A stretch of DNA of 64,000 nucleotides from the sequence record KX130865; one strand, written 5' to 3'. Position numbers and translations under genes: made by a program. This document shows positions 44,885 to 50,444 of the stretch, piece after piece (the stretch's first letter is position 1; each line of letters starts with the position of its first letter). The DNA is from Shigella phage SHSML-52-1. The notes beneath the pieces are model-generated. The model saw nothing but the letters and a program-made list of their open reading frames with translations. It was not told the DNA's origin and made no database searches.

Positions 44885-45436
44885 TTACTTAAAGATATTT
44901 ATAATCGCTTTGATAATAGATTTGTTTTCAAGGTCAGGGAATTTAGGGAATTCGCCGCCAAGATGTTCATGTTTTTCTAAAAGGGCAAAGAATTTTTTGA
45001 GCTCTTTAAATTTTCGTTTTTCTTCTCTATTAGCAACCTCTGCGTCAATAAGAGAACTTAAAACACTGAATAATTTATAGAGTTCATGAATTTTCTTATC
45101 ACGTTGAACTACACGTTTATATGCTTCATCTTCCTTCCACCCGTCGTCGGTCCAAATGTCAAATTCACCAGGTTCTTCTGTAGTAACATTTTGAAGAGCA
45201 CCTGGAGTGTCAATAACAATTTTTTGCTTATCATATGTCCATACTGTTTTTCCTCGATGGTCTTCAACATATACCCATTCTTGCTCGCGTTCGTCAAATA
45301 TAACAGCATAGCCTTCTTTAGGGTCTAAAGGTTTTTTTGGTGTCGAATGAGCTGGAAATCCTACGCCTTTTAATGGTTTATAATTTTCTTCTTTGTAAAA
45401 TTCTTTAGTGTCAAAATAATAGTGATAGAGTTTCAT
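44885..45436 (-). CDS. 38: tail fiber assembly chaperone gp38 (T4-type)
   Basis: 183 aa; MKLYHYYFDTKEFYKEENYKP… matches recalled T4 gp38; directly downstream of gene 37. Confidence 0.8.
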   Translation of the reverse strand: MKLYHYYFDTKEFYKEENYKPLKGVGFPAHSTPKKPLDPKEGYAVIFDEREQEWVYVEDHRGKTVWTYDKQKIVIDTPGALQNVTTEEPGEFDIWTDDGWKEDEAYKRVVQRDKKIHELYKLFSVLSSLIDAEVANREEKRKFKELKKFFALLEKHEHLGGEFPKFPDLENKSIIKAIINIFK

Positions 45437-45446
45437 ATTATAAAAA

Positions 45447-45460
45447 GGGACAGAAGTCCC
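45447..45460 (-). terminator. hairpin GGGAC-UUCU-GUCCC + U5 between genes 37 and 38
   Basis: Read on the minus strand: perfect 5-bp GC stem followed by TTTTTAT. Confidence 0.5.
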
Positions 45461-45466
45461 TTCTCC

Positions 45467-48400
45467 TTATGCTAAACGAACGATATAGTTAAAAGCAACG
45501 TTTTTAACAGTGTTTTCTGTATTTCCTGTGGCATTTACAGTTATTGTATGTCCATGGGAACCAATTGCAACAGTATGAGAATGAGCACCAATACCCACCG
45601 AATGGGTATGAGCACCAATACCTACCGTATGAGCATGGTTACCCGTAGAGCTAGTAGTTCCTGACCAACTATGGGTGTGGGCACCGTCATTTGATGTTTT
45701 ACCGACCTTAGTTGCTAAAGTCGAACCAGTGATACCTGAGTTAATTTTAGCATATGAGTTTGCACCTATCGTAGTAACCCCGTCTCTAAACAAATCGTTT
45801 GCCCATGCAGCAGTGACCTGTGGACCTGAACGCGCGTGTTGGTGAGCTCCTGCGGAACTAGTATTACCACTCACTGTATGGTTATGGTTACCAGTGGTAT
45901 TACTGGTCTTAGTACCATAATCAAAGCTTGAAGTCGTTTTGCTACCGTAATCAAAACTAGAAGTGGTCTTAGTACCCAAATCTGTGCTTGATGCACTTGC
46001 ACTATGGCTATGTGACTTAACACCATCTGCTTCTGTACTTAATACAGCGCGCCCAGATGGTTTACCCTTGATAGTTTGACCACGCATATCAGGCAGAGCG
46101 CCAGAAGGATACACCGCAGCTAACTTAGGATACAAGCCAGTATCAAATGTTTGGCCTTCCATTATGGCATAACCTTCAGGAGGTGTATCAGTAGGCCAAG
46201 GAATCGGAGCACCAATTGGGTAACTCGAGACAATATCCGTCTTAAGGTTATTTATTGTGGTATTCAAGTTAGCAAAGTTGCCAGAACCACCAGTAATATT
46301 ACCATCAGTACCGAATTGAGCATTACCAACTTTTAATGGTTTAGTAATATCGACAGAATCAGAGTTTAATGCAATACCATGTGAATATGTGTAGCTGTGC
46401 ATACGAACGACGTTGCCGCCATCTCCAATACCTAAATACCATTTCGGAACATCTGCTTTACGTCCTTGAATGAAGTTAGAAGACTCTTGTGTTGGAGCAT
46501 TTATTCTAATAGCATCTGATGCCATATTTACTGTTATGCGTTGACCAGCCGTAGTTCCAGCCGCTTCTACTTTAAATCTACCGCCGCCGATATCTACATC
46601 ATGATCCATGGAAACTTTACCAGTACTTAATGTAATATAGAACGGACGTAAATTAGAAATACCACCTGATTCACCAACATTCTGTGGAGTTGGAATAATA
46701 TAAAGCTTATCTTCAGAACGACGGAAAATAGCCCCGTATTCAGCATCGTAAATACGGAAAGCATCAGCAGTCCCGCCAATTTTAACCTGTCCAGTAATTG
46801 AGGCACCACCTTGAACAAACAATCCATTATTCATTGTAACGTTGCCAACTAGAGTGCTTAATCCGTTAACTCTAAGACTTCCGTCGGTTATTAAGCTTCC
46901 TCTAGCATTAACCTGTCCATTGAACTGAGTTACAACAGGGCCTGTAGTTTCAGAACCGGTCGGAGCTACGCGTTGAGAATAGAAATAATAACCTTGGCCA
47001 TCAGAAACCTCAAATACGGTTTCTCGAGCTTTATCACCAGTAGCATTAAATGAGTTACCCCATGCTTTCACGGTCACATAACTTTTGTTCTGACCTGCAC
47101 GAGTACCGCCTTCCCAAAGGATTTGTTTGGTGCCATCAATACCTGAAGCCGCTTTAAAAACTAGAGAAGCATTAGTTCCATCACCATTAAAATATAATCC
47201 ATTATTAAGTTTTAACGTTTGAACAGAAGCGATGGTACCATCAGCACGCAAATTTAACGAATTTGAACCAGTTTTAATATCTAAAATGCCAGGCTCAACA
47301 AGAAGCCCATCACCCATACTAACGGACATACGACCAGTGCCACGGAAATAGTGATACATCTTGGCATTGCTGCTATAACCAATATGAGTCTGACCGTCAC
47401 CGTTATTATTACCATCAACATCGGTACGCGCAGTAAACATTGCTTGGTTGTTATTTGGGTAATCCCAAGTAGAACCAGAATCTCGACTATAACCAACCAT
47501 CAATTTTTTAGTACTGTTAATACCGTTATTAAGAATAGTGCCGGCAGAAATACCATTCGCAACTAAATCGATAACCCCGTCACGAACCCATTTAATACCA
47601 GTATCATTGTCACCAATTGCAATACCTTTACCAAACGAAACCAATGGATAACGTCCTTGGTCACCAACATCAGCAAGACCTATACCTATCGAATTAGCAA
47701 CAGACATACGCCCATCTGTGGTATAAGACCATTGATAAACTTCAGCATTACGTCCCGTCCAATACGAAATATTCTGTGGTTTACCTGAACGAGCATCGGC
47801 AACTTCATGGAAAATAGCAGAAGAAACATGTCCGCGGAATTTACGAAGGTAGTTTATACCATTAGTATCCAAATCTGTTTCGGTTGGAGTATAGTGCCAA
47901 GTCGGTAATGAAACTAAATCATATGCAGTATCAATATTAGTGTCCCAAGATTTAGTGCTCACATTGATATTTTTGGTAATAACTTTAGGACCAATTAAAG
48001 AACCAGCTTTAGTTTCAATATTACTTTGAGTAACTAAATATCCATTAGATACTAATAAACTTCCGGAATCAACTTGAAAATTACCGTTTCGATTAAAAGT
48101 CCAGTATTTTGAAGTCCCGGTTTCATCAATATAATGGAATTTAAAACTACCTTCGTTTACTAATGTACCAGCAGAAAAAGTTCCATCTTTATAGCGTTGT
48201 TTAATCAGTGGATGGTATTCTGAAACAGAAGTAGTTGAACTTAAATCTGTAAAGATAGGGGCTTTATTCGAATGTTGGTTAGCCCAAGCGCCATTTCCAG
48301 TGGTTTTAGGTAAAAATTCAATGTATTTTCCTGCATAAACAAACTGATTTCCATTGAGATTATACGTGCCGTTTTGTAAATAATCGCCAGTTTGAGTTAC

Positions 48401-48583
48401 ATTACCGTTAATATCCCCACCCTTAGCAAAGCCTAGGCTAATAATATTACCGAGGTCATCTTTAGTAAAAAGAGTTCGGTCTTTTAAGTTTATCGCTAAT
48501 TCGCCTTCGGCTAATTGTGCTGCAGTAGGATTAACTCCTGCCACTTTGCTTCTTTTAAATTGTATCTGTTTTAATGTAGCCAT
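45467..48583 (-). CDS. 37: long tail fiber distal subunit gp37 (receptor-binding, C-terminal His-box)
   Basis: 1038 aa; conserved N-terminus [13 protein letters not shown]…; C-terminal HxH repeats ([33 protein letters not shown]) and …NYIVRLA end as in T4 gp37. Confidence 0.9.
45577..45632 (-). repeat. tandem repeat of about 27 bp encoding His-box units in gene 37
   Basis: ATGAGCACCAATACC(C/T)ACCG(A/T)ATG repeated head-to-tail; coordinates approximate. Confidence 0.5.
45914..45967 (-). repeat. imperfect tandem repeat of about 27 bp in gene 37 (encodes KTTSSFDYG x2)
   Basis: Two adjacent near-identical units; coordinates approximate. Confidence 0.45.
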
Positions 48584-49293: not shown

Positions 49294-49311
49294 GGGAGAC
49301 CGAAGTCTCCC
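49294..49311 (-). terminator. rho-independent terminator after gene 35 (GGGAGAC-UUCG-GUCUCCC + U-run)
   Basis: Perfect 7-bp stem on the minus strand followed by ATTTTTG. Confidence 0.65.
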
Positions 49312-49322
49312 TAAATTTATTC

Positions 49323-50444
49323 TTATGCTTCTTTAAATTCTTGTCCAAATACCTTACCAGTATCAGTTGAAGATTGAGTAGGTAGTGTCATTATGTCTGG
49401 GGCACTTAAAGATTCTGAAACATAATTTACACGAATACCATTTATACCAAACTCGGCCGGTTTTGAAACGCTTCCATTACATGATACTTCAGTGAATATA
49501 ACGTTTCTTAATCCACCTTGGCCGACTGGAGCTGTACGATAACAATAAATCGTGAACCCGTCAGCACCAGCAGGAATTTCTATGTAGTCTTCATATATCT
49601 TCCATTCACCTGCGCTCCCATCAAAGTTTATATCTTTAAATGAAATAGGTGAAGTAGAAGGAGATTTAAAGAAACGAATAGAAAGTCGTGTCGTCCCTTG
49701 TGCTAACAAATCAGCATCGGCCATTAGTTGGAATTTCATATAAAGGAAATCTCCAGGCTTCAATTTATACCCAGCGAGAGGCGTAATAATGGATGTTGTA
49801 GGCATCCTTTTAATTTCGTTATTAGTACCTCCAACGGCAGATAAAAATGTGTCTGTCGATTCGTACGTACGTCTAGGGAAGCCGGTAGCACCAATATCAT
49901 CGATCGTGTCGTACACAACATCAAGTGGTGTACTATAGTCAGTTGAAGTTTTCTTATTACTATACTTAATATGTTCTAATGCTATAGCATTCTTACCAGA
50001 AATATAAAATGCAGAATAAGAAATGTCCACTATATTTAAAACTTGTTGAGCTAATGGAATAGCAGAACTCCCAGCTTTGGTAAACCATGCAAGAACTTCT
50101 GGTGGAAAGTTTGTTTTAGCGTTAGTAACAAGAGCAAATATAAAATTTGAAGCATATGTGTCCATGAAAGTAACAAATGCACTTGACGTTGCGTCGTTTT
50201 CAGTAGAGAAATTATATGACTTAGATTCAACTACTGCACCTGTTGTAGGATTTATTACACGAACGTTTAATCCAACGGAAAAAACCTGGGACCCAAGTGG
50301 ATTATCTTGGAACTTAATATAAGTAGGAGATGTTGATAGCGGACAAGAGCCCGCTATGCTTAATTTAAATCGTACTGAATTGCTTTCCGATAAAAATGGC
50401 GTTTGGACGTATCCTTGTCCAAACTTAGCCATAAATTTTTCCAT
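49323..50444 (-). CDS. 35: long tail fiber hinge protein gp35
   Basis: 373 aa; position between 34 and 36. Confidence 0.8.
   Translation of the reverse strand: MEKFMAKFGQGYVQTPFLSESNSVRFKLSIAGSCPLSTSPTYIKFQDNPLGSQVFSVGLNVRVINPTTGAVVESKSYNFSTENDATSSAFVTFMDTYASNFIFALVTNAKTNFPPEVLAWFTKAGSSAIPLAQQVLNIVDISYSAFYISGKNAIALEHIKYSNKKTSTDYSTPLDVVYDTIDDIGATGFPRRTYESTDTFLSAVGGTNNEIKRMPTTSIITPLAGYKLKPGDFLYMKFQLMADADLLAQGTTRLSIRFFKSPSTSPISFKDINFDGSAGEWKIYEDYIEIPAGADGFTIYCYRTAPVGQGGLRNVIFTEVSCNGSVSKPAEFGINGIRVNYVSESLSAPDIMTLPTQSSTDTGKVFGQEFKEA

Follow-up and report, generated by a model that had tools for sequence, protein, structure and literature searches.

Gene 37 of Shigella phage SHSML-52-1 raises the question of whether short in-frame DNA repeats in the C-terminal tip of a tail fibre act as a hypermutable host-range switch or simply encode the building blocks of the tip. 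The stretch studied comprises 64,000 nt of this phage (record KX130865) and is referred to here as the window. Within it, an open reading frame at positions 45467–48583 on the minus strand encodes a product of 1038 amino acids (aa). A preliminary description, made from the sequence alone, had called this product a gp37 receptor-binding tip with two 27-bp tandem duplications, one made of near-identical units encoding HxH motifs (the His-box) and the other encoding KTTSSFDYG twice. It had proposed that such repeats are prone to slippage and could vary tip length or the number of metal sites and hence host range, and that comparing copy number among isolates would be a suitable check. The evidence set out below points to a different answer. 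We estimate at roughly three in four the probability that the tip is the C-terminal needle of a T4-type gp37 whose repeats are old, paired stem modules rather than a slippage-prone switch.

The identification as a gp37 receptor-binding tip was correct, and is borne out by sequence alignment to the solved T4 tip, by domain matches, and by the neighbouring genes described further below. In a phmmer search, window residues 761–1038 aligned onto chain positions 2–242 of PDB entry 2XGF, the T4 gp37 receptor-binding tip (Bartual et al. 2010), with an E value of 5.6e-88. The alignment covers the whole solved T4 tip, including the collar, both arms, the position of the head, and the C-terminus. The Pfam families gp37_trimer (PF20744) and Collar (PF07484) both matched above their curated cut-offs, with E values of 4.3e-11 and 3.5e-11, respectively. 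The gene is also 99.7% identical in DNA, over its full length of 3117 nt, to a gene of Escherichia phage FP43 annotated as a side tail fiber protein. Judged by its sequence, the gene 37 product is of the T4 type, in which the tip itself would act as the adhesin. Eight HxH motifs were found in the tip, at aa 858, 900, 914, 969, 983, 992, 1001, and 1010. They are spaced by 42, 14, 55, 14, 9, 9, and 9 residues, and the last is followed by a 28-residue tail; in essentially all homologues the last HxH likewise lies 28 residues from the C-terminus. The parts of the gene on which the argument rests are as follows.

45467..48583, minus strand: gene 37, long tail fibre distal subunit, 1038 aa (open reading frame, FP43 match, Pfam, 2XGF alignment)
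46289..46513, minus strand: gp37 trimerisation region, aa 691–765 (PF20744)
46070..46213, minus strand: collar (knob) domain, aa 791–838 (PF07484; aligned to the 2XGF collar)
46004..46012, minus strand: HxH motif 1, aa 858–860, adjoining the collar; equivalent to T4 H883/H885
45914..45973, minus strand: outbound-arm modules, two tandem 10-aa (30-bp) units, aa 871–890
45836..45886, minus strand: outbound "14" module with HxH motifs 2 and 3, aa 900–916, GNHNH...GAHQH
45680..45835, minus strand: head between the arms, aa 917–968, a putative receptor-contact region by analogy with T4 head mutants
45644..45679, minus strand: return-arm "14" module, starting with HxH motif 4, aa 969–980
45536..45643, minus strand: return-arm HxH array, four tandem 9-aa (27-bp) units with HxH motifs 5–8, aa 981–1016
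45470..45535, minus strand: conserved C-terminal segment, predicted to re-enter the collar, aa 1017–1038 (invariant alignment columns)

The arrangement of these parts can be read against the known structure of the T4 tip. Two papers describe a T4 gp37 chain that doubles back at the head to give a six-stranded needle with iron at the HxH motifs (PMC12609058; PMC9603124). By homology, the chain of the window protein would leave the collar, reach a small receptor-contacting head, and double back to the collar, and three such chains would form a six-stranded needle in which HxH motifs along the axis coordinate iron, octahedrally and with six histidines at each site. The building block of the outbound arm would be a 10-residue module (xKTxSSFDYG) just after the collar, and that of the return arm a 9-residue module (GxHxHxVxI) just before it. 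Because the two kinds of module lie at corresponding distances from the collar, they are probably level with each other along the needle axis. Both arms must span an equal length, so modules would be fixed only in pairs, and outbound length would covary with the number of return units. An AlphaFold2 monomer model of residues 761–1038 built from a 30-sequence alignment was unusable, with a predicted local distance difference test score of 49 and a predicted template modelling score of 0.18, as expected of an intertwined trimer.

Comparison with T4 gives the first indication of pairing, a dependence between the two repeats that the preliminary description had overlooked. Outside the head, the 2XGF alignment contains exactly two internal gaps in the T4 chain, one of 10 residues (the second KTTSSFDYG) and one of 9 residues (one GIGAHxHxV). 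T4 has a single outbound 10-aa unit (residues 896–905) where the window has two, and three return 9-aa HxH units where the window has four; its HxH motifs number seven (883, 915, 929, 966, 980, 989, and 998) to the window's eight. With one more module on each arm, the window needle would have a stem one layer longer than that of T4 and one more metal site, making eight predicted sites against seven.

The same pairing was found across homologues. Sequences were taken from a 90%-clustered protein database (120 homologues), from 150 representatives at 50% identity, and from 19 IMG/VR loci, 11 GenBank phage loci, and 79 genome loci. Phage records with this needle number 567. The set analysed comprised 235 distinct complete needles, which are not phylogenetically independent. 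For each needle, k counts the nine-residue steps of the return arm, and the outbound distance was taken from HxH1 to the next outbound HxH. Outbound length was found to be approximately 12 + 10k (Spearman 0.955), and 231 of the 235 distinct needles fit strictly, with k ranging from 1 to 6. The window, with 42 residues outbound and three return steps, is among those that fit. The distribution was as follows.

k = 1: outbound 22 residues; 7 distinct sequences
k = 2: outbound 31–32 residues; 109 distinct sequences
k = 3: outbound 41–42 residues; 100 distinct sequences
k = 4: outbound 52 residues; 12 distinct sequences
k = 5: outbound 62 residues; 1 distinct sequence
k = 6: outbound 72–73 residues; 2 distinct sequences

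The tip-proximal 14-residue modules are paired as well: among 199 sequences, 103 carry them on both arms, 96 on neither, and 0 on one arm only. Five clusters of heads (at least 75% identity) include needles of differing k, and both arms had changed every time. Heads that are alike can be borne on stems of differing k, so stem length is separable from head identity; this argues against a simple link of stem length to host range, and nothing tying module number to host range was found. Only four needles failed to fit. Three of these (P0218, L061, and L096) keep the module count with one HxH motif lost. In L096, an Escherichia albertii prophage, the loss is an H-to-Y change (GAYSHS), and in L061, a Candidatus Erwinia dacicola prophage, it is a 2-aa deletion (GAH--TVAI); either the loss of a single metal site may be tolerated or these two prophage genes may be decaying. 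The fourth, L001 (IMGVR_UViG_3300030021_000020, locus ~1501–2307), combines two outbound FDYG units with a k = 2 return arm and is the only true mismatch among the 235. This locus, on a contig assembled from a metagenome, combines T4/JK45-like with window-like DNA in a mosaic.

Two further observations were made on the collected loci. Klebsiella sp. WOUb02 carries at least four short k = 1 needle genes (L102–L105), distributed over the chromosome and two plasmids, with HxH spacings of 22, 38, and 9. Separately, the contigs of L031–L041, L043, L055, L068, and L081 are 100% identical to the lambda stf/tfa region and are assigned to Chromatium, Leeuwenhoekiella, Pseudomonas, Kitasatospora, Paenibacillus, Shewanella, and others. 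Many of them are of low coverage and ~48.5 kb long, and they are almost certainly lambda DNA contamination of the assemblies.

Whether the repeats of the window gene could behave as a switch depends in part on how alike their units are in DNA. For the HxH array, Tandem Repeats Finder (TRF) reported positions 45560–45637 with a period of 27, 2.9 copies, and 78% matches, and a seeded repeat search returned three copies at 27-nt spacing with 70–77% identity. When the codon register is followed, the array extends to four 9-aa units (45536–45643), the fourth being GSHGHTITV. Neighbouring units share 20/27, 20/27, and 15/27 nt (56–74%), and the longest exact run at an offset of 27 is 15 nt. The array is thus tandem and in frame with a period of 27, as had been described, but its units are far from near-identical.

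The second duplication needed a different correction. KTTSSFDYG is indeed present twice, at aa 872–880 and 882–890, but the period is 10 aa and therefore 30 bp, not 27 bp. The two units ([T/S]KTTSSFDYG, 45914–45973) have 23/30 nt in common, and the longest exact run at an offset of 30 is 8 nt. TRF did not report this 30-bp repeat, even at a minimum score of 30. A repeat search with 6-nt seeds returned a three-copy family at 30-nt spacing (45904–45991) that includes the preceding SSTDLGTKT module, and in a codon-shuffle control a level of 22 matches per 27-nt window was reached in 1 of 200 shuffles. The DNA-level signal of the KTTSSFDYG repeat is therefore borderline. Chance similarity of the two copies was considered and rejected despite this borderline signal, since hundreds of homologues retain the 10-residue periodic module.

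The repeats also appear to be old. Different codons are used at five of the nine identical KTTSSFDYG residues, compared with 4.98 expected for independent encodings under the codon usage of the fibre genes of the phage. This match indicates that the synonymous sites are saturated. In phage moha, both outbound units are base-for-base identical to those of the window, in a needle that is only 84.5% identical overall. A recent duplication in the window lineage was rejected on these two grounds, saturation and the presence of the same two units in moha. Both duplications in the window gene would accordingly be ancient in origin, and the repeats would be structural rather than a hypermutable switch.

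Close relatives were found to share the length of the window gene. In a megablast search with the 561-nt needle, each of the 60 phage records listed (99.3% to 76.9% identity) aligned over one unbroken stretch with no change in length, and every record aligned to the entire gene in a single piece has a length of 3117 nt. Needle DNA identity to phages Aplg8, ATK47/48, KAW3E185, and G53 is 97.5–99.3% (97.5% for KAW3E185 and 98.4% for G53), and several other Tequatrovirus gp37 genes are 90–95% identical in DNA to the window gene. A slippage-prone repeat would be recognised by near-identical units with long exact repeats and by copy-number polymorphism among close relatives; the former are absent from the window gene and the latter from the listed records. 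The proposal that these repeats are prone to slippage is not supported for the window gene, where the units have diverged, the synonymous sites of the KTTSSFDYG units are randomised, and length is unchanged in the 60 listed records. Likewise, the copy-number comparison among isolates that had been suggested as a check gave no variation among the 60 listed needle records. The idea that tip length and metal-site number vary fared differently at the two scales: it is not supported in the window lineage but is partly supported across the family, where module number, and with it needle length and HxH count, runs from k = 1 to k = 6.

In the wider family, events of the slippage type are seen. Between Shigella phage JK45 (k = 3) and Citrobacter phage PhiZZ23 (k = 2) there are only two mismatches over ~440 nt on the 3′ side of an outbound insertion/deletion (indel). 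What separates the two phages here is this 30-nt outbound (FDYG) indel together with a perfect 27-nt tandem duplication within the return-arm HxH array of JK45, whose joins fall in His codons. In k = 2 genes, 8-nt direct repeats are present, GCTCATAC at 27-nt spacing and GGTACTAA at 30-nt spacing, and these could prime duplication events. Immediately 5′ of the outbound indel the two phages are less alike in DNA, so this indel may stem from recombination rather than from a change in place.

These events bear on the view that the repeats are slippage-prone DNA that often changes copy number, and with it tip length or metal sites and so host range, as a contingency locus would. The range of module number in the family (k = 1 to k = 6), the perfect 27-bp duplication of JK45 relative to PhiZZ23, and the 8-nt direct repeats of k = 2 genes can all be cited for it, and we also counted in its favour the title of a report by Tetart et al., discussed at the end. 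Seven to nine HxH repeats are, in addition, given for Tequatrovirus gp37 in one study (PMC6563267). For the window gene we nevertheless consider this view quite improbable. The various unit comparisons yield only 56–77% identity, with exact repeats of at most 15 nt in the 27-bp array and 8 nt in the 30-bp array, and synonymous sites in the KTTSSFDYG units are randomised. Needle length had changed in 0 of the 60 listed related records, a single arm had changed in 1 of 235 needles, and the same head is found on different stem lengths. Moreover, the T4 host-range and receptor-binding substitutions tabulated in a review lie in the head, at residues 932–959 (PMC9603124; PMC5221442). In the reading that we prefer, the divergent head between the two arms is the most likely seat of receptor specificity.

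Alternatively, the covariation of the arms might be a product of history, in which a few scaffolds are inherited whole and heads are swapped by double crossovers in His-box sequences, with no need for selection. In its favour, mosaicism of the needles is clear, particular outbound alleles (TKTSSSFDYG, for example) turn up in more than one phage, most needles have k = 2 or k = 3, and shared ancestry means that the counts are not independent events. However, the same arithmetic holds over six values of k and extends to the 14-residue modules, with 0 of 199 sequences discordant. In addition, the return-arm difference between JK45 and PhiZZ23 is a clean in-place duplication or deletion of 27 bp in near-identical DNA, with no swapped block. 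Single crossovers within the ~170-nt head between parents of unlike k would also be expected to generate mismatches, yet only one was seen, and that in a metagenome assembly. On balance, history as the whole explanation seems unlikely. The reading that we prefer, old modules fixed in pairs, has points against it as well. The L001 mismatch may represent either a tolerated real recombinant or an assembly chimera. Inherited scaffold types, together with exchange of head cassettes, may account for some of the covariation. Finally, the physical packing of 10-aa against 9-aa modules and metal binding at the eighth site are both predictions made from sequence.

If modules are indeed fixed in pairs, a further and more tentative proposal can be made. 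The gp37/Stf stem may be a length-adjustable stack in which 10- and 9-residue modules, encoded ~110 codons apart, are gained and lost together under a rule of compensatory duplication. A mismatched form such as L001 would then be a rare intermediate, repaired later by a second slippage; the perfect 27-bp duplication in JK45 suggests such a repair of mismatched arms. We regard this as a possibility worth stating rather than as the expected outcome. A pairing of 10 residues outbound with 9 residues on return was not found stated in the literature searched, a search that did not include the primary paper on the 2XGF structure; what comes closest there is an HxH number of 7 to 9 (PMC6563267) and a possible scaling of that number with needle length (PMC12609058).

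The window gene is near-identical to deposited T4-like gp37 genes, and in itself the finding adds little. The pairing rule is a modest, testable addition to features already known, and the practical correction is that the repeats of this phage should not be taken as a hypermutable host-range switch. As a design rule for tips of the T4 and lambda type, matched stem modules are to be expected, 10 residues on the outbound arm and 9 with an HxH on the return arm. Needle length, and presumably iron content, could thus be changed without touching the receptor-binding head, and mismatched arms would help to single out chimeric assemblies or defective fibres.

The genomic setting agrees with the identification of gene 37. 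It is flanked on one side by gp36, gp35, and gp34 and on the other by a gp38-type chaperone of the Tfa family and holin t, and the order 34-35-36-37-38-t in the window matches the T4 layout. Two features lie immediately downstream.

44885..45436, minus strand: gene 38, T4-type tail-fibre assembly chaperone, 183 aa (PF02413 Caudo_TAP, E 7.6e-5)
45442..45460, minus strand: GC-rich hairpin GGGAC-TTCT-GTCCC followed by TTTTT, read from the sequence

T4 carries an equally long open reading frame of 552 bp that is annotated as the gp38 assembly catalyst. The hairpin separates the stop of gene 37 from the start of gene 38 and is absent from the terminator-scan listing; a similar hairpin with a 7-bp stem is found at 49294–49311, between genes 35 and 36. 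No tRNA genes or Rfam matches were found in the window, so no such RNA feature complicates the region. The open reading frame at the gp35 position (49323–50444, minus strand, 373 aa) matched the Pfam family ILEI (PF15711, E 6e-7, 30.3 bits where the cut-off is 27), a domain name that one would not expect in a tail-fibre hinge protein.

Among known systems, T4 is the natural reference. Its gp37 (2XGF) shares with the window protein the collar, both arms, the HxH motifs, and the C-terminal 28 residues, and its locus shares the gp38 chaperone and the gene order. Besides the two extra modules, the window protein differs in the head: the spacing between HxH3 and HxH4 is 55 residues in the window and 37 in T4, making the window head 18 residues longer, and its sequence is unrelated. 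Receptor specificity is thus likely to differ from that of T4. The gp37 genes of FP43, Aplg8, ATK47/48, KAW3E185, and G53 are essentially the window gene, with the same length and repeat numbers and only point differences. Seven to nine HxH repeats, in T4-needle-like tips, are given for gp37 of MM02, KAW3E185, WFbE185, G53, and others by Korf et al. 2019 (PMC6563267), and the paper on the Bas63 structure raises the possibility that longer needles have more HxH motifs (PMC12609058). The literature thus already covers His-box repeats and differing HxH numbers, as well as duplications in gene 37 that affect host range. The GenBank records of Escherichia phage moha (MN850590, L021, locus 1293–1348) and phage mogra likewise carry a "repeat_region" over the gp37 HxH array, so depositors had noted the tandem repeat before.

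Outside the T4-like phages, lambda Stf (orf-314) and enterobacterial prophage tail fibres share this k = 3 needle architecture. In the lambda-type needle the HxH spacings are 42, 14, 48, 14, 9, 9, and 9, 28 residues follow the last motif, and a Tfa chaperone comes next. It differs from the window needle in its head (a spacing of 48 versus 55), in its N-terminal shaft, and in its siphovirus or prophage context. As for duplication as a route of change, Tetart et al. in 1996 reportedly described T4 host-range mutants with duplications in the adhesin region of gene 37, work known to us from its title and from secondary citations. What such mutants have in common with the window gene is the route of change, in-frame tandem duplication towards the C-terminal end of gene 37. 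The T4 duplications, however, reportedly arose under laboratory selection for a new host, whereas those of the window appear to be ancient, fixed, located in the stem, and paired.

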